Part shown: positions 1 through 6,146 of the stretch, in pieces | Numbering within the stretch: position 1 is the first letter of the stretch | Layout: each line of letters opens with the position of its first letter | Virus record (IMG/VR): IMGVR_UViG_2645727970_000001 | Location: 1-6,146 of that record | Strand: one strand, 5' to 3' | Source: a virus | Lineage: Duplodnaviria; Heunggongvirae; Uroviricota; Caudoviricetes | Length of the DNA stretch: 6,146 nucleotides | Program-made: the position numbers and the translations under genes | The notes under the pieces: model-generated | Databases searched by the model: none | What the model was told of the DNA's origin: nothing | Seen by the model: the letters and a program-made list of their open reading frames with translations, nothing else

Positions 1-29
1 TGGGTGTTTTATTAGTACGAATAAGCACT

Positions 30-57
30 GTGTATTCATTCCAACGAGTGAATACAC
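30..57. repeat. Perfect 9-bp inverted repeat (gtgtattca / tgaatacac) with 10-nt spacer; possible RNA hairpin or protein-binding site
   Basis: Positions 30-38 are the exact reverse complement of 49-57. No T-tract follows, so it is not a classic terminator. Confidence 0.4.
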
Positions 58-119
58 GGAGCAATGTCGCTCGTAACTAAACAGGAGCCGACTTGTTCTG
101 ATTATTGGAAATCTTCTTT

Positions 120-145
120 GCCCTCCAGTGTGAGGGCATTTTTTT
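120..145 (+). terminator. Rho-independent terminator-like hairpin upstream of the first ORF
   Basis: 6-bp GC-rich stem gccctc(120-125)/gagggc(132-137), loop cagtgt, followed by a run of seven T (139-145). Oriented for + strand transcription. Confidence 0.6.
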
Positions 146-157
146 GACGGAGGAAAT

Positions 158-469
158 ATGAAATTACGTGTCTGGCATATCCCGCAAGTTCCTATGAAGC
201 CGTTCATTGTAGAAGTGGCAAGTGTTGAAGAGGGTGTTCGCCTGATGGATGCACTGGCTGATTATGATGCCTTTCAGTATGACAACAATATCAAGCCTGA
301 CTACTGCAATGCTAACGGCCTTGAGATGTGGGATGAGAGCATTACTGATGAAGATTTATCAGAGATGGGGCTTACGGATCGCTGGGTAGATTGGTACAGC
401 GAATGCCAATGTTACGACGACCCACGTAAATATATCGAAAGCCTGAAAGAAGAAACCTCAGCAGCCTGA
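158..469 (+). CDS. Hypothetical small acidic prophage protein (103 aa)
   Basis: ORF with SD ggagg 6 nt upstream of ATG 158. Translation is D/E-rich (about 23 acidic against about 9 basic residues by my count) with several Trp/Tyr and 3 Cys. No family recognised. Confidence 0.7.
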   Translation: MKLRVWHIPQVPMKPFIVEVASVEEGVRLMDALADYDAFQYDNNIKPDYCNANGLEMWDESITDEDLSEMGLTDRWVDWYSECQCYDDPRKYIESLKEETSAA

Positions 470-504
470 GCGCGGATTTGACGCATACAAATTAAGGAGG
501 ATAT

Positions 505-1473
505 ATGAGTGAAGTAACAGATTTAGTTGTTATTGAAAAAGCAAATGCAATGACTGTATTTCAGTCTGCCGACCAGATTGAAGAAATCCTTCAAAAGGTT
601 GAACGTGAAGTTATGTCCTTTGTGCCTGATATCACAACGGCAAAGGGCAGAAAGGAGATCGCTTCTCTGGCGTATAAAGTTGCGCAGACGAAAACATATC
701 TCGATGGTCTTGGTAAAGACCTTGTTGCTGAACTGAAGGAAATTCCAAAGCTAATTGATGCTAACCGCAAGACAGTGCGCGATCGCCTTGATGAACTGAA
801 AGCCAAGGCGCGCCAGCCTCTTACTGATTATGAGGAAGAACAGGCGCGGATTAAAGCCGAAGAAGAAGCTAAGGCAGCAGCTGAAGCTCTCGCAAAGCAA
901 ATTGAGTCTGACCATGAAATAGCGATTTTGATGGATCGCGAATTTGACCGCCAAAGAGAAGAGGCAAGACTCAAAGCGGAGCAGGAAAAGCGAGAGCATG
1001 AAGAACGCTTAAAAAGAGAAGCTGAAGAGAAAGCCAGAGCAGAAGCCGAAGCAAAGGCAAAAGCCGAAATTGAAGCAGCAGCAAGGCGAGAAGCAGAAGC
1101 TAAGGCCGCAGCGGAACGTGCAGAGCGTGAACGCATTGAAGCCGAGCAACGAGCACAGCGCGAAGCAAAAGAGGCAGCAGAACGAGCTGAAAGAGAAAAG
1201 CAGGCGGCAATTGAAGCAGAACGCCGAAAAGCACAGGAGGAGGCTGAACGAATCCGGCGCGAGGCTGAAGCAAAAGAGCAAGCCAGAATAGCAGAAGAAA
1301 AAAGAATCAAGGACGAAGAAGAGCGCAGAGCAAAGGATAAAGCTCACCGGAAAGAAGTAAATAACAAAATACTTGCTGACCTTATCAAGGTTGGCGCATC
1401 AGAAGATGTTGCTAAAAATATCATAACAGCCATCGTAAAAGGCGAAGTATTCGCAACAAAAATAACCTACTAA
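505..1473 (+). CDS. Hypothetical phage protein with long central E/R/K/A-rich helical (coiled-coil or single alpha-helix) region, 322 aa
   Basis: Consensus SD taaggagg 7 nt upstream of ATG 505. N-terminal ~110 aa and C-terminal ~40 aa look globular; residues ~115-285 are low-complexity AEAKAKAE/ERAERE-type repeats. Opposite-strand ORFs across this span are repeat artefacts. Confidence 0.75.
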   Translation: MSEVTDLVVIEKANAMTVFQSADQIEEILQKVEREVMSFVPDITTAKGRKEIASLAYKVAQTKTYLDGLGKDLVAELKEIPKLIDANRKTVRDRLDELKAKARQPLTDYEEEQARIKAEEEAKAAAEALAKQIESDHEIAILMDREFDRQREEARLKAEQEKREHEERLKREAEEKARAEAEAKAKAEIEAAARREAEAKAAAERAERERIEAEQRAQREAKEAAERAEREKQAAIEAERRKAQEEAERIRREAEAKEQARIAEEKRIKDEEERRAKDKAHRKEVNNKILADLIKVGASEDVAKNIITAIVKGEVFATKITY

Positions 1474-1497
1474 TAAAACCAACATAAGGAACCACCC

Positions 1498-1629
1498 ATG
1501 ATTTACGCAATCGCGGGAGGCGCTCGCATGGGTGCCTTCCAACTAAATGAATCTTTACTTGAACGAATCACCCGTAAATTACGTGACGGATGGAAAAGAG
1601 TTGAGGTCTTATTATGCGCAATGAAATAG
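1498..1629 (+). CDS. cIII: CIII-like regulator (FtsH/HflB inhibitor that stabilises CII), short 43-aa form
   Basis: Not in the supplied ORF track (too short). ATG 1498 preceded by aagga. Translation MIYAIAGGARMGAFQLNESLLERITRKLRDGWKRVEVLLCAMK contains the ESLLERITRKLRDGWKR core that I recall from phage lambda CIII. The ORF ends earlier than lambda's 54 aa. Confidence 0.8.
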   Translation: MIYAIAGGARMGAFQLNESLLERITRKLRDGWKRVEVLLCAMK

Positions 1630-1766
1630 CCATCAATCACCAGATGCTTCGTGCTGCACAGAACAAAGCAGTAATAGCCAGATTTATTGGTGATTCCAAA
1701 ATGTGGCTTGAAGCAAATAAAGCGATGAAATCAGCTATCAACCTTCCGTGGTATCGCAGGAAATGA
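1614..1766 (+). CDS. kil: Kil-like small protein (candidate FtsZ/cell-division inhibitor), 50 aa
   Basis: Not in the ORF track. ATG 1614 lies inside the 3' end of cIII with gagg upstream. Translation MRNEIAINHQMLRAAQNKAVIARFIGDSKMWLEANKAMKSAINLPWYRRK has the FIGDxKMWxEA-type core I associate with lambda Kil / Rac KilR; position directly after cIII matches lambda gene order. Confidence 0.55.
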   Translation: MRNEIAINHQMLRAAQNKAVIARFIGDSKMWLEANKAMKSAINLPWYRRK

Positions 1767-1978
1767 GTTTTACAGATAACTGGTCAGACGAAGAATTCAT
1801 TCGTCAGATGAAAGAATTAATCGGTAACGAAGGAGATATTCATGTCACTTGCAACCACAGTGAAGGAGAGCAAGTTACAGAGACGCATGTACACGCAGAA
1901 AGCGCTAAGGTATCGCCAGAAGGGAGACCGCGAAGGAATGCGCGTATGCCTAAATGCGGCAAAGACTCGAAGTATTAA
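1763..1978 (+). CDS. Hypothetical small protein (71 aa from ATG 1763; track lists a GTG start at 1748)
   Basis: ATG 1763 overlaps the kil stop (aATGa), suggesting translational coupling. Acidic N-terminus, His/Cys-containing C-terminal half (HVTCNH...THVH...KCGK). Sits where gam/arf-type genes lie in lambda/P22-like phages but has no recognisable similarity. Confidence 0.55.
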   Translation: MSFTDNWSDEEFIRQMKELIGNEGDIHVTCNHSEGEQVTETHVHAESAKVSPEGRPRRNARMPKCGKDSKY

Positions 1979-2021
1979 ATCAGCGTTATTTCCTTGGGCC
2001 GTGTCCATTCTGAGGTGAATT

Positions 2022-2729
2022 ATGGATTTGAACAAATTCGATGAGCCATTCAGCCCTGAAGATATCGAATGGCGAATACAGCAAAGCGGTAAAACACGCG
2101 ATGGCAAGGTGTGGGCTATGGTGCTGGCTTATGTCACGAACAGGGCAATCATGAAACGCCTGGACGATGTTTGCGGCAAAGCAGGATGGCGCAATGAATA
2201 CCGCGATATTCCCAACAACGGAGGCGTTGAATGCGGCATATCAATAAAGATTGATTCCGAATGGGTAACCAAATGGGATGCTGCTGAAAACACGCAGGTA
2301 GAAGCCGTCAAAGGCGGTCGTTCCGGTGCAATGAAGCGCGCTGCCGTTCAGTGGGGAATCGGTCGGTATCTGTATAACCTTGAGGAAGGTTTCGCACAAA
2401 CATCTCTCGATAAAAAGCAGGGGTGGCACAGGGCAAAACTGAAGGATGGAACAGGATTTTACTGGCTCCCTCCATCGCTGCCGGGATGGGCAATCCCAGC
2501 ATCAGATAAAAAACCATCACCAGAAAATACCAACCAGAAATCTCCATCGGTTGACTGCGAACAAATCCTGAAAGACTTCAGCGATTATGCATCAACAGAA
2601 ACTGACAAGAAAAAACTCATCGAGCGTTATCAGCGTGACTGGCAATTAATGGCTGGCAACGAGGAGGCACAGGCTAAATGCGTTCAGGTAATGAACATCA
2701 GAGTTAACGAACTAAAACAGGCGGCATAA
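2022..2729 (+). CDS. Rad52/Rad22-family single-strand annealing protein (Sak-like phage recombinase), 235 aa
   Basis: SD gaggtga upstream of ATG 2022. Translation contains EAVKGGRSGAMKRAAVQWGIGRYLY, matching the conserved Rad52-family signature. Occupies the position of lambda bet. Confidence 0.8.
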   Translation: MDLNKFDEPFSPEDIEWRIQQSGKTRDGKVWAMVLAYVTNRAIMKRLDDVCGKAGWRNEYRDIPNNGGVECGISIKIDSEWVTKWDAAENTQVEAVKGGRSGAMKRAAVQWGIGRYLYNLEEGFAQTSLDKKQGWHRAKLKDGTGFYWLPPSLPGWAIPASDKKPSPENTNQKSPSVDCEQILKDFSDYASTETDKKKLIERYQRDWQLMAGNEEAQAKCVQVMNIRVNELKQAA

Positions 2730-3197
2730 ATGTCTCACTTGGACGGAATTATTAAAAGATTCGAGTCCAGCTACAAAGTTAATGAAACAACAGGTTGCTG
2801 GGAGTCTACCTATTCAAAAAACAAAGGAGGATACACAAAATTTGTAGCCTTTGGCGTAACAATGCTTTCTCATCGGGTTGCTTTTGAGCTTTATCACTCC
2901 CCCATTCCATCTGGGAAGATGGTTTGCCACAAATGCGATAACCCATGCTGCGTTAATCCTGAACATCTCTTTTTAGGTAGCGCGCAAGAAAACATGGACG
3001 ACAAGATAGCAAAAGGAAGGCATCGTGGAGCCAAGAAAGGTCATGCTCATCATGGTGCAAAATTAACAGAGTGGCAGGTTATAGAAATTAGGAAAAGACT
3101 CTCTGAAAAAGAGAGTCAGTACAAGATAGCAAAAGACATGGGTGTATCTCAATCAATTATAAGCAACATAAAAACTGGCAAGAGGTGGAGCAAATGA
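2730..3197 (+). CDS. HNH endonuclease (HNH_3-type, probable free-standing homing-type nuclease) with C-terminal helix-turn-helix-like region, 155 aa
   Basis: ATG 2730 directly abuts the upstream TAA (TAAATG). Motif [23 protein letters not shown] fits the H...C..C...N..H...N pattern of HNH nucleases. The coding sequence looks AT-richer than its neighbours by eye. Confidence 0.8.
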
Positions 3198-3700
3198 GTT
3201 CTCGCGGGATAAATAAGGTGATTATCCTTGGTCGGGTAGGACAAGACCCGGAAGTTCGATACTCACCATCAGGAACAGCGTTCGCTAACCTGACAATAGC
3301 CACGTCAGAACAATGGCGAGATAAAAATACTGGCGAGCAAAAGGAATTGACTGAATGGCATCGTGTTGCTGTATCCGGGAAACTGGCTGAGGTCGTGGGG
3401 CAGTATGTAAAAAAAGGTGATCAGATTTATTTCGAGGGAATGCTGAGAACCAGAAAGTGGAAAGACCAGTCAGGGCAAGACCGTTACACAACCGAGGTTC
3501 ATGTCGGAATTAATGGCGTGATGCAAATGCTTGGCGGCATTGGCGACAGCAAACAACAAGCAGCCAGCAGGCAATCACAGAAGCCACAGCAGCAATCATC
3601 ACCAGCACAACACAACGAACCTCCGATGGATTTTGACGACGACATACCCTTTGCACCAGTAACTCTCCCCTTCCCTCGTCACGCTATTCACGCAATTTAA
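3194..3700 (+). CDS. ssb: Single-stranded DNA-binding protein (phage-encoded SSB), 168 aa from ATG 3194
   Basis: N-terminus [23 protein letters not shown]...TEWHRV...[19 protein letters not shown] is close to E. coli SSB. ATG 3194 overlaps the HNH stop (aATGa); the track's GTG at 3185 is less likely. Q/S-rich linker then [11 protein letters not shown], but the frame continues 15 codons ([15 protein letters not shown]) before TAA. Confidence 0.95.
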
Positions 3701-3713
3701 TCAGGAGAAAAAC

Positions 3714-4010
3714 ATGCCAGCGCCTCTGTATGGTGCGGACGACGCACGCCGCTGTTCCGGCAATTCCGTATCGGAGGTGCTGGATAAATTCAGAAAAAAC
3801 TACGATCGGATAATGTCTCTACCGCAGGAAACGAAAGAGGAAAAGGAATTTCGCTATTGTATATGGCTTGCAGAGAAAGAAGAGCGCGAGCGAATTTACC
3901 AGACATCAATCCGACCATTCCGCAAAGCCACATATACCCACTTCCCTGAATATATCGACCCGCGCCTGCGTAATTACCGCTCACGCTATGGCGCTATCAG
4001 TAATGACTGA
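3714..4010 (+). CDS. Hypothetical prophage protein (98 aa)
   Basis: SD aggag 8 nt upstream of ATG 3714, 13 nt after the ssb stop. No recognisable motif; basic and Tyr/Arg-rich C-terminus. Confidence 0.65.
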
Positions 4011-4020
4011 GGAATTTACC

Positions 4021-4215
4021 ATGAGAGGACTTGCATACAATCCCGGCATTCTTCCGGCAGAAATGATTATTCGCCAACGCGTAAAGCCAATGCCATCGAG
4101 AGAGGAATTTCTTAAGAGAAATTCTTCTCCGTCAGTGAATCAAAACAAATATGTGACTGCTCCCCGCCCTGTCGGGCGAGGCTTCCCACTTCTCAGGCCG
4201 CAACCGTCTGTATGA
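4021..4215 (+). CDS. Small prophage ORF (64 aa as read) whose 3' part runs into the IS right end and tnpB; probably truncated or fused by the insertion
   Basis: SD tgagga 8 nt upstream of ATG 4021, 10 nt after the previous stop. The track's longer form (3868..4215) overlaps the 98-aa ORF and is unlikely. From about 4145 onward the sequence is IS-derived, so the native C-terminus is unknown. Confidence 0.35.
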
Positions 4216-4300
4216 CGGATTTACGCTGGCCTCCATGGGCAGAGACGACGTGTCCCGCCGCCTTTAGCTCCAGTATTCCTTTTTGCCGGATATTGAGTGC
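4125..4300 (-). ncRNA. Putative TnpB guide RNA (omega/reRNA) spanning the 3' end of tnpB, the IS right end and adjacent flank (predicted, not directly visible)
   Basis: Inferred from established TnpB biology: the guide RNA derives from the tnpB 3' end plus right end, with the guide read from flanking DNA. Only the hairpin at 4162-4181 is seen directly; extent is a guess. Confidence 0.3.
4162..4181. repeat. Subterminal imperfect palindrome of the IS, tnpB-proximal (right end)
   Basis: ccccgccc-tgtc-gggcgagg: 5-bp cgccc/gggcg stem with a conserved C/A mismatch, flanked by ct...ttc. Near-identical to the hairpin at 5887-5907. Confidence 0.65.
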
Positions 4301-5368
4301 TGCATTGATATCCCGGTCATGTTCAATACCGCATTCAGGGCATCGCCAGATGCGTTTATGAAGTGGCATTTCCGGCATCTTGTAACCACAACAATGGCAG
4401 GTTTTCGAACTGGCAAACCACTGGTCGAGTTTTACCAGGTGAACGCCTTTTTCTGCTGCCTTGTACTCCAGCTTTACGATGAAGCTGTGCCAGCCCGCAT
4501 CACCTATCGCTCTTGCCAGATTGTGGTTTTTCATCATGTTGGCTGTTTTCAGCGTCTCGACAATTACCGCTTGGTTTTCGTCAACAATTGCACGAGAAAG
4601 TTTGTGTTGAAAATCAGCACGGGCATTGGCAACCCGTTCGTGTAACGCAGCCAGTCGGATTCTGGCCTTTTTACGGTTCGCGCTTCCCTTTTGTTTGCGG
4701 GATAGCGCTTTTTGTTTGCGTCGCAGATTACGGCTGGCATTGATGAGATGACGAGGATTCGGAGCTTTTCCCCCATCAGACATGATGACATAGTGCTCAA
4801 GCCCCATATCCACACCAGTAATCTTTTCTTCCTCCAGATACGCTGGTTTCTCTGGTGTGGGAATACCGTCTTCACAAAGGATAGATGCGTAGTATTTCCC
4901 GGTGGCACTGCGAGTGATTGTTATGCTCCTCACTTTTCCCGCCATTACACGGTGTATACGCGTTTCTATCGGTGCCAGCTTAGGAATTTTGATGGCATTC
5001 TCCAGTACTTTAATCCCGACACAATGGTAGCTCGATTGCTTCCCATGTTTACGTTTAAACGTCGGGAATCGTGCTTTCAGCTTCGGATTAAAAAAGTTGG
5101 AAAACGCCACATCAAGATTAATCACCGCCTGTTGCAATGCCATTGAATCAAATTCTTTAAGCCAGGCATACCTGCGGGACTTCTTCGCCACAGACAACAA
5201 CGGTTTTAAATCTTTACGCGGACGTAAATTCACTCCGTGTCGCTGGTAAGCGTGTTTTTTGATGTTAAGAGCTTTGTTGTATGCAAAACGTACCGCACCG
5301 AACTGGGCATTGAGATACTCAGCCTGTTCGGTAGTGGGATATATGCGTACTTTTGTCGCTCTTAACAT
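4193..5368 (-). CDS. tnpB: TnpB (IS200/IS605 OrfB; RuvC-like RNA-guided endonuclease), 391 aa
   Basis: Translation shows a split RuvC fold with candidate catalytic residues in GVDMGLEHY (D), AVIVETLK (E) and [10 protein letters not shown] (D), plus a CxxC...CxxC zinc finger (CHCCGYK...CPECG). Full length with ATG start. Confidence 0.9.
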
Positions 5369-5412
5369 ACTCAGCGCTCATTGATATTATTCAATTATTT
5401 TAACAAATTGAG

Positions 5413-5850
5413 GTGATTTTTCAATTGAGCGAACAACATGAATCTCTTGAAGGCTTCCTTCGGAAGCGTCACAGTGTGAGCAAGCTCGTAGTACATTTAA
5501 TTTTCACGACAAAGTATCGCAGAAAACTTTTTGACGGATGCATGATAGAGCAACTACGGGAAGCTTTTTGTTCCGCCGCAGCAAAACTTGAATGCGAAAT
5601 TCTTGAAATGGACGGTGAGACAGATCATGTGCATCTGTTGGTTGCTTATCCGCCCAAACTGGCAGTCAGCGTCATGGTGAATAATTTGAAATCAGTATCG
5701 TCACGTTTGCTGTGCCAGCAAAACACACATTTACGAACACAGAGCAAAACAGGCTTGCTTTGGTCAAGATCCTACTTTGCATGTAGTGCCGGAGGTGCGA
5801 CGATAGAAACGCTCAGAACTTACGTTCAAAGCCAGTCAACGCCGGAATGA
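5413..5850 (+). CDS. tnpA: TnpA, IS200-type Y1 (HuH) transposase; translation probably starts at TTG 5425 rather than GTG 5413
   Basis: KYRRKLF near the N-terminus, HuH motif DHVHLLV, catalytic-type Tyr in LRTYVQSQ and LWSRSYF...GGA match the IS200 TnpA pattern. No in-frame ATG; GAGGTGA (5410-5416) sits 8 nt before TTG 5425. Divergent from tnpB across 44 bp. Confidence 0.85.
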   Translation: MIFQLSEQHESLEGFLRKRHSVSKLVVHLIFTTKYRRKLFDGCMIEQLREAFCSAAAKLECEILEMDGETDHVHLLVAYPPKLAVSVMVNNLKSVSSRLLCQQNTHLRTQSKTGLLWSRSYFACSAGGATIETLRTYVQSQSTPE

Positions 5851-5857
5851 TTTTTTT

Positions 5858-5875
5858 AAAGCCCTTCGGGCTTTT
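5858..5875 (+). other. Perfect 7-bp hairpin with TTCG loop just after the tnpA stop, inside the IS left end
   Basis: aaagccc-ttcg-gggcttt, preceded by seven T. Only a weak T-run follows, so it may be a structural or transposition-related element rather than a strong terminator. Confidence 0.4.
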
Positions 5876-5886
5876 CCGCCTTTCCT

Positions 5887-5907
5887 CCCCGCCCGCATTG
5901 GGCGAGG
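5887..5907. repeat. Subterminal imperfect palindrome of the IS, tnpA-proximal (left end)
   Basis: ccccgccc-gcatt-gggcgagg: same stem and same C/A mismatch as 4162-4181, same orientation, about 1.7 kb away. Confidence 0.65.
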
Positions 5908-5928
5908 GTTCTCGGCGGTTGTTTGCTG

Positions 5929-5953
5929 AACTCGCTACGGCGAGTTTTGTTTT
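5929..5953 (+). terminator. Terminator-like hairpin at or just outside the IS left boundary
   Basis: 7-bp stem aactcgc/gcgagtt with tacg loop, followed by a T-rich tail (ttgtttt). Oriented for the + strand; could terminate tnpA read-out or belong to the phage. Confidence 0.45.
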
Positions 5954-5966
5954 ATGGAGATGATAA

Positions 5967-6134
5967 ATGCACTTTCGAGTCACAGGTGAATGGAATGGAG
6001 AACAATTCAACAGAGTTATCGAAGCAGAGAACATCAATGACTGCTATGACCACTGGATGATATGGGCGCAGATAGCCCATGCAGACGTAACCAATATTCG
6101 AATTGAAGAACTGAAAGAACACCAAGCCGCCTGA
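5967..6134 (+). CDS. Hypothetical small prophage protein (55 aa)
   Basis: Not in the ORF track. ATG 5967 with ggag 7 nt upstream; translation MHFRVTGEWNGEQFNRVIEAENINDCYDHWMIWAQIAHADVTNIRIEELKEHQAA. Stop codon lies in the loop of the following terminator. Confidence 0.5.
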   Translation: MHFRVTGEWNGEQFNRVIEAENINDCYDHWMIWAQIAHADVTNIRIEELKEHQAA

Positions 6135-6146
6135 TGGCGGTTTTTT
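6127..6146 (+). terminator. Rho-independent terminator at the end of the + strand gene array
   Basis: Stem ccgcc(6127-6131)/ggcgg(6136-6140), loop TGAT, then six T to the window edge. Confidence 0.6.

Follow-up and report, generated by a model that had tools for sequence, protein, structure and literature searches.

The region described here is probably a recombination module of the P22/HK75 type in which an HNH gene, itself most likely a free-standing homing endonuclease cassette that lacks a promoter, sits at the beginning of the gene for the phage single-stranded DNA-binding protein (SSB, gene ssb). It lies in a stretch of 6,146 nucleotides (nt) from a virus of the Caudoviricetes (IMG/VR record IMGVR_UViG_2645727970_000001, positions 1 to 6,146), called the window below, and forms part of a lambdoid/P22-like early-left operon on the plus strand. 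An earlier note on this DNA had pointed to a Rad52-like annealase followed directly by an HNH nuclease and an SSB, with no lambda-type exonuclease, and had suggested that the three genes are co-expressed and that the nuclease either is a selfish homing enzyme or supplies recombinogenic ends to the annealase. The features at issue are:

2022-2729, plus strand: Rad52/Sak-type annealase
2490-2726, plus strand: Erf-type C-terminal domain of the annealase (63% identical with residues 134-205 of P22 Erf, E 7e-28)
2730-3197, plus strand: HNH_3 endonuclease
2733-3211, strand not assigned: inserted block, 479 nt in place of 15 nt (GCAAGCAGAGGCGTA) of HNH-less relatives
3181-3190, plus strand: Shine-Dalgarno sequence for ssb, AGAGGTGGAG, from the 3′ end of the HNH gene, read off the sequence
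3194-3700, plus strand: SSB
3197-3211, plus strand: recoded ssb codons 2-6, AGTTCTCGCGGGATA instead of GCAAGCAGAGGCGTA, presumably a disrupted homing site
3653-3697, plus strand: 15-residue C-terminal extension of SSB, common to the C-terminus of the Sf6 gp26-type HNH protein
3714-4010, plus strand: Abc2

Pfam profile searches bore out the three protein identities proposed earlier: Rad52_Rad22 (PF04098) matched the N-terminal core of the annealase (residues 4-136) at 5e-26 (91.9 bits, cut-off 20.3), HNH_3 matched the second protein at 1.1e-13 (51 bits, cut-off 24.8) and SSB (PF00436) the third at 1.8e-36. The tight junctions were also seen as described. The TAA stop of the annealase (2727-2729) abuts the ATG of the HNH gene at 2730, and the HNH stop overlaps the ssb start as ATGA. 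The mechanically called ssb open reading frame (ORF) opens at a GTG at 3185, while both the alignment with E. coli SSB (MASRGVNKV...) and the way RefSeq annotates relatives place the true start at the ATG at 3194. No sigma-70-like promoter or terminator-like site was found on the plus strand between 1800 and 4100, which fits co-transcription of annealase, HNH and ssb. The tight coupling of the three genes stands.

The insertion was delimited by comparison with phage HK75, to which the window is 97.8% identical over 1549-2732 and 97.3% identical over 3210-4160. HNH-less phages read ...GGCGGCATAA ATG GCAAGCAGAGGCGTA AATAAGGTG..., with the ssb start directly after the annealase stop, and their annealase/ssb junction of the HK75 type contains ...GGCGGCATAAATGGCAAGCAGAGGCGTAAATAAGGTG...; the window reads ...GGCGGCATAA ATG [HNH body ...AGAGGTGGAGCAA ATG AGTTCTCGCGGGATA] AATAAGGTG... 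This alignment indicates that the HNH gene has taken the old ribosome-binding site and start codon from ssb, which in turn gets a new ribosome-binding site and ATG from the HNH 3′ end. Every HNH homologue lying before ssb keeps the Shine-Dalgarno sequence as AAGGTGG. Behind the new ATG, ten of the 15 nt of codons 2-6 are changed, and the protein merely goes from MASRGV to MSSRGI. The inserted block has a GC content of 41.6%, against 48.2% in both flanking genes.

The survey of relatives that the earlier note had suggested revealed a polymorphic gene. Of 420 complete E. coli genomes with a match to the region, 38 have the HNH-containing form, as do eight of 80 IMG/VR loci (the best of 439, all with an annealase at least 99% identical, a sample that we regard as unbiased); the other 72 lack it. 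The recoded ssb start occurs in 28 IMG/VR contigs, each with the HNH gene immediately before it; the uninterrupted annealase/ssb junction occurs in at least 120. The protein is 98.7-100% identical across 22 IMG/VR contigs of the window type, and its cluster at 90% identity has 126 member sequences. Among 50,697 GenBank records, no sequenced phage isolate carries the window HNH at more than 62% identity, and the gene has so far been found mainly in prophages. More distant homologues, at 74% identity in Cronobacter, Citrobacter and other Enterobacteriaceae, at 62% in a Vibrio phage and at 60% in Shewanella, lie immediately 5′ of ssb and overlap it by 4-8 nt, and the gene upstream of them varies (an annealase of the Erf or the Rad52 type, or an unrelated ORF). 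The HNH lineage thus appears from these sequences to track the ssb start, whatever the upstream gene.

The neighbourhood of ssb is variable in other ways too. In relatives its slots hold, in varied combinations, the window HNH on the 5′ side, an Sf6 gp26-type HNH on the 3′ side, a third HNH_3 gene and a DnaQ-type exonuclease. The third HNH_3 gene, 36% identical to the window HNH, was found in one IMG/VR locus (L087) between an ssb that ends after 42 codons and abc2. Seven of the 72 HNH-less alleles (e.g. L207, L185 and L213, IMG/VR) carry point changes in ssb codons 2-3, namely ATGGGAAGTAGA (MGSRG, four loci), ATGGCAATCAGA (MAIRG, two loci) and ATGTCAAGC (MSSRG, one locus), and these are possibly cleavage-resistant sites. 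Two prophages of E. coli E2348/69 (L170 2400-7172 and L171 3243-8018) have in common a 4.77-kb block of 99.9% identity that includes the HNH gene and runs from just upstream of the annealase through a DUF551 gene, while their immunity and upstream regions differ. Such identity despite differing flanks indicates recent gene conversion between the co-resident prophages, which seems compatible with spread by homing and is not proof of it.

To the HNH_3 match of the HNH protein are added weak matches to zf-His_Me_endon and HTH_38. An alignment of 69 homologues (38-74% identical) has 16 invariant columns, all kept in the window protein, among them C23, H67, C69, C74, N76, H79 and N88; the family profile aligns to the His-Cys box of I-PpoI (H98, C100, C105, H110 and N119). 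The loss of catalytic residues that the earlier note had considered is therefore not seen in either alignment. In an AlphaFold2 model (predicted local distance difference test score 90) the C-terminal three-helix helix-turn-helix scores above 90, and the top PDB folds are I-HmuI, matched over the whole length including its C-terminal helix-turn-helix, and I-PpoI. These matches came from the family profile and the model, as a PDB search with the single sequence returned nothing relevant. With its catalytic and zinc-binding residues intact the enzyme looks active, and we infer that it is a free-standing HNH_3/His-Cys-box homing endonuclease with a C-terminal helix-turn-helix. Two other roles were rejected. 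PADLOC gave one match only, to a generic 'homing endonuclease' model, which speaks against a role in defence, and a packaging-associated function of the HK97 gp74 type does not suit a gene that lies in the early-left operon between annealase and ssb and not beside terminase or cos-packaging genes.

Homing endonuclease genes often decay after fixation, and the ORF could by that token be an inactive or decaying remnant that is carried along, a reading for which the seven HNH-less alleles with changes in ssb codons 2-3 could also speak, as resistant sites. Against this, the ORF is of full length with every family-invariant column in place (among them H67, N76, N88 and the Cys/His zinc ligands), is nearly identical in the 22 window-type contigs and has a large cluster, and its structure is modelled with confidence. 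We regard a remnant as very unlikely.

The module that received the insertion can be placed by a gene that the earlier note overlooked, together with the Erf-type C-terminus of the annealase. About 13-14 nt 3′ of ssb begins abc2, whose product matches Pfam Anti-RecBCD_p2 (PF11043) at 4.2e-60 and P22 Abc2 (PDB 8b1t) at 1.4e-54, and is 90.8% identical to P22 Abc2. The gene order parallels 17-c3-kil-arf-erf-abc1-abc2 of P22, with SSB in the abc1 slot as in HK620, whose module runs hkaM-sak4-ssb-abc2 (PMC5928155). Recombination in P22 is known to need host RecBCD as modified by Abc2, which binds RecC and has been proposed to turn RecBCD into an end processor that passes single-stranded DNA to Erf, and phages that encode Abc2 characteristically have no exonuclease of their own (PMC9836394). 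In HK620 the SSB of the module stimulates its annealase via the SSB C-terminal tail (PMC5928155). A survey of 325 lambdoid phages, published in 2025, describes an 'HK75' class of 27 phages with anti-RecBCD, SSB and annealase and no nuclease, and an 'ES18' class with the same parts plus a nuclease (PMC12315714). By analogy with these phages, the module is a published HK75/HK620/P22-type recombination cassette that would use host RecBCD through Abc2; the hand-off from RecBCD-Abc2 to the annealase would follow the same model. The earlier picture of a three-gene module lacking a nuclease partner did not hold, as abc2 follows in the P22/HK620/HK75 layout.

The earlier note was right that the window has no gene like lambda Exo. 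Six-frame tblastn of the window with lambda Exo, Bet and Gam, a DnaQ-type exonuclease and P22 Abc1 returned nothing (all E > 0.9; Abc1, E 1.4), and RecE is likewise not present in it. With Abc2 next to ssb and an Erf-type C-terminal domain on the annealase, the missing exonuclease is established biology of a published module class, and an annealase module of this kind is unsurprising; if Abc2 binds host RecC here as P22 and HK620 suggest, RecBCD would process the ends and a phage exonuclease would be unneeded. A conventional exonuclease of the lambda Exo or RecE type might instead lie just outside the window. One IMG/VR locus (L088) does have, fused to the front of a 5′-truncated copy of the annealase gene, a lambda bet fragment and an exo gene (85% identity to lambda Exo), and some relatives have a DnaQ-type 3′-5′ exonuclease between ssb and abc2. 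The window, however, runs from gp17 past abc2 without one, its DnaQ slot is empty, as abc2 starts after 13 nt, and the HNH-carrying relative E. coli LR-64-1 (L018) has none annotated anywhere in its early-left operon, which is complete between repressor and attachment site. On that operon we rejected the idea, whose probability we put close to nil.

Taken together, the proposed course of events is as follows. The operon would be transcribed from pL, and annealase, HNH, SSB and Abc2 translated from one message. Abc2 would redirect RecBCD; SSB would coat the resulting single-stranded DNA and probably stimulate the annealase, which would act on it through its Erf-type C-terminal domain and anneal single strands. 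These first two stages are either seen here or established for homologues. The HNH gene, using the old ribosome-binding site and ATG of ssb, would be expressed along with the recombination genes. Its product would nick or cut HNH-less alleles at or near the annealase/ssb junction (...TAAATGGCAAGCAGAGGCGTAAATAAGG...), the conserved junction being its likely target site, and the HNH-carrying allele would be protected by the insertion and by the ten substitutions in ssb codons 2-6. Repair of the cut allele from an HNH-carrying copy, by the same recombination machinery, would then copy the cassette into it. Both the cleavage specificity and the homing itself are predicted here from sequence.

Several points weigh against this interpretation. 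The target site is deduced from the insertion boundaries alone. Since the recoded 15 nt lie directly against the HNH gene, plain linkage could account for their association with it in 28 of 28 contigs, and the GCA to AGT part of the recoding is needed to make the overlapping TGA stop. A 100% identical HNH protein precedes ssb alleles of HK75, Sf6 and hybrid type, with crossovers at no more than 27 nt and at about 80 nt, but hybrid HK75/Sf6-type alleles also occur in HNH-less phages; crossover points beside the HNH gene are therefore not diagnostic of co-conversion driven by homing, and we downgraded these tracts from proof to being consistent with it. On the side of the module, Abc1 is absent, the ORF in the Arf position has no detectable homology to Arf, and the loading model for Abc2 is itself incompletely proven (PMC9836394). 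Finally, the long-term adjacency and translational coupling of HNH and ssb across genera also fit a functional partnership of HNH and SSB, and the authors of the 325-phage survey see tightly packed HNH genes as probable true members of the module (PMC12315714).

These last points belong to a different explanation, that the HNH enzyme is a working component of the module, supplying RecBCD-Abc2 and the annealase with ends by nicking or breaking DNA, or acting with SSB on replication or recombination intermediates. The ATGA and TAA-ATG couplings join the gene into one translation unit with annealase and ssb, its place next to ssb is kept down to 60% identity in Enterobacteria, Vibrio and Shewanella, and its catalytic residues are under purifying selection. 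However, some 90% of the modules with a 97-100% identical annealase, ssb and abc2 do without it, which makes it dispensable; whether a DnaQ exonuclease or a second HNH is there has no bearing on its presence, its GC content is foreign, and its architecture (a sequence-reading N-terminal sheet, a His-Me finger and a helix-turn-helix) is that of site-specific homing enzymes. A working component thus seems unlikely to us. Of the two roles that the earlier note had offered for the nuclease, selfish homing has gained from the many relatives without the gene, the flush boundaries and the recoded ssb codons, while the supply of recombinogenic ends is weakened by the dispensability of the gene.

The enzyme might also serve mainly in competition or host takeover, cutting the ssb start of rival phages (marker exclusion) or of the host while its own recoded ssb is spared, with spread as a by-product. 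The start of E. coli K-12 ssb (L017 326-352) differs from that of HNH-less phage ssb at three of 27 nt and from the HNH-linked start of the window (3194-3220) at 12 of 27; with 24 of 27 nt matching the HNH-less form, the host gene may carry the presumed endonuclease site. The phage moreover brings its own recoded ssb, and free-standing endonucleases of T4 cause marker exclusion (PMC2988022). On the other side, the site may extend upstream of the ssb ATG, where the host sequence is unrelated to the phage junction, and the explanation overlaps with the homing model without excluding it. As the main purpose of the gene, we regard competition or host takeover as unlikely. A more elaborate idea, which we mention as a speculation with little chance of being right, would combine these elements. 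An ssb-specific homing endonuclease recognising the 5′ coding end of ssb may also cut the essential ssb of the host in lytic growth and the ssb of rival phages, its own recoded, immune copy replacing SSB, as a combined device for homing, exclusion and host takeover; and ssb would be bracketed by two unrelated in-line homing cassettes, one borrowing and replacing its start, the other giving it a stop directly after IPF and itself ending in the 14 residues that SSB has as its tail where this second cassette is lacking, the two together toggling the DDDIPF tip between free and masked.

The tail in question is a peculiarity of the SSB of the window. The protein aligns to E. coli SSB at 2.4e-57 over residues 1-153, ending in DDDIPF (residues 148-153), and 15 further residues follow, so that the acidic tip is not at the free C-terminus. 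Normally the DDDIPF tip of SSB must be the free C-terminus. In 25 of 25 relatives in which an Sf6 gp26-type HNH follows, SSB stops directly after IPF, and that HNH ends in the same 14 residues (L001 4283-4750; L002 4342-4821). Ahead of Abc2 or a DnaQ exonuclease the tail is always present (about 100 loci), and relatives of the gp26-type HNH elsewhere, including an ORF in the polA region of Staphylococcus phage K, are without it. The tail is either a deletion scar or the mark of an insertion into an extended ssb.

The annealase is likewise composite. It also belongs to phrog_1097 (5e-130), and RefSeq labels its relatives 'Rad52/Rad22 family DNA repair protein'. Its core gave no match to Pfam ERF, the likeness to Erf being confined to the C-terminal 72-84 residues, and a PDB sequence search with the protein returned nothing informative. 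The C-terminal domain, likely a partner-interaction domain, is 37% identical to the C-terminus of the Cronobacter-type Erf, and both end in ELKQAA. 'Domain swaps' of Erf are known from phage epsilon34 (PMC2629481). Annealases of the Erf and Rad52 types from several genera have an identical end, ELKQAA followed by the stop codon, and the same DNA there, AAACAGGCGGCATAAATG (window 2700-2732; L005-L013 about 3970-4003), which by its sequence appears to be a conserved recombination joint left of the ssb or HNH gene.

The remaining features of the window are:

158-469, plus strand: homologue of the superinfection-exclusion protein gp17
505-1473, plus strand: 322-residue coiled-coil protein, Sf6 gp33-like
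1498-1766, plus strand: small ORFs like cIII and kil
1763-1978, plus strand: small ORF in the position of P22 arf and HK620 hkaM, HK97 gp42-like (phrog_2123 at 2.3e-40)
4021 onward, plus strand: DUF2737-type gene, truncated
about 4161-5925: IS200/IS605 element (tnpB 4193-5368, minus strand; tnpA 5413-5850, plus strand)

The ORF at 1763-1978 is syntenic with P22 arf. BLASTP gave no alignment with P22-type Arf, the sole common element being a seven-residue SDEEFI motif, and as Pfam and NCBIfam were also without a match we rejected it as an Arf homologue and use 'Arf-position ORF' as a label only. The DUF2737-type gene beginning at 4021 has the IS200/IS605-family element inserted in its 3′ end, and relatives are without the element; the sequence to the right of it corresponds to a far more distal portion of the Sf6 early-left region. 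A scan of the window for structured RNAs gave no Rfam match above threshold.

These results correct the reading of HNH genes in lambdoid recombination modules, for which the 325-phage survey had leaned to functional module nucleases (PMC12315714). Since the comparative evidence indicates a selfish cassette, the window HNH lineage should not be entered as a module nuclease in classifications of modules or in searches among them for recombineering tools. The results also present phage ssb as a repeated landing site for homing endonucleases, paralleling segG and gene 32 of T4, and provide a concrete candidate recognition sequence for the window HNH at the ssb start.

Among known systems, the P22/HK620/HK75 class is the closest to the module as a whole. 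Alike are the operon position after 17, cIII and kil and the order of small ORF, annealase, middle slot and abc2; P22 also has an Abc2 about 90% identical and the Erf-type C-terminal domain, a phage exonuclease is likewise lacking, and HK620 and HK75 have an SSB in the middle slot (PMC5928155, PMC12315714). Unlike P22 and HK620, the window has an annealase core of the Rad52/Sak type, not Erf or Sak4; unlike P22, it is without Abc1 and its Arf-position ORF is not detectably Arf; and unlike the whole class it has an HNH gene before ssb. With lambda Red (gam-bet-exo) the window has in common a phage-encoded recombination system in the pL operon with cIII and kil as neighbours, but it lacks Exo (YqaJ-type), Bet (RecT/Redbeta-type) and Gam, and RecBCD is proposed to be redirected, not blocked.

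For the nuclease itself, I-HmuI (PDB 1u3e) has the same arrangement of an N-terminal nuclease and a C-terminal helix-turn-helix, and I-PpoI (PDB 1a74) the motif spacing H-x-C-x4-C-x4-H-x8-N; both are 17-24% identical to the window HNH and are intron-encoded, whereas the window gene is free-standing. The HNH genes of the Sf6 gp26, Huey and ES18 class ('HNH2') are likewise packed against ssb in the same module and polymorphic, but those of the Sf6 gp26 type belong to another HNH family with no detectable similarity and lie at the 3′ end of ssb, not the 5′ end; the two types can co-occur (L030, L045). A close parallel to the proposed way of life comes from T4, where segG, a free-standing homing endonuclease gene between genes 32 and 59, targets gene 32, the SSB gene of T4, whose promoters lie inside segG (PMC2988022). 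SegG, on gene 32, and MobE resemble the window HNH as promoterless in-line cassettes beside a phage SSB gene that embed its expression signals, are present or absent among close relatives, and depend, as the window gene would too, on recombination functions of the phage (PMC2988022). SegG belongs to the GIY-YIG enzymes, the window HNH to the HNH_3/His-Cys-box type, and the latter resides in a temperate lambdoid prophage.

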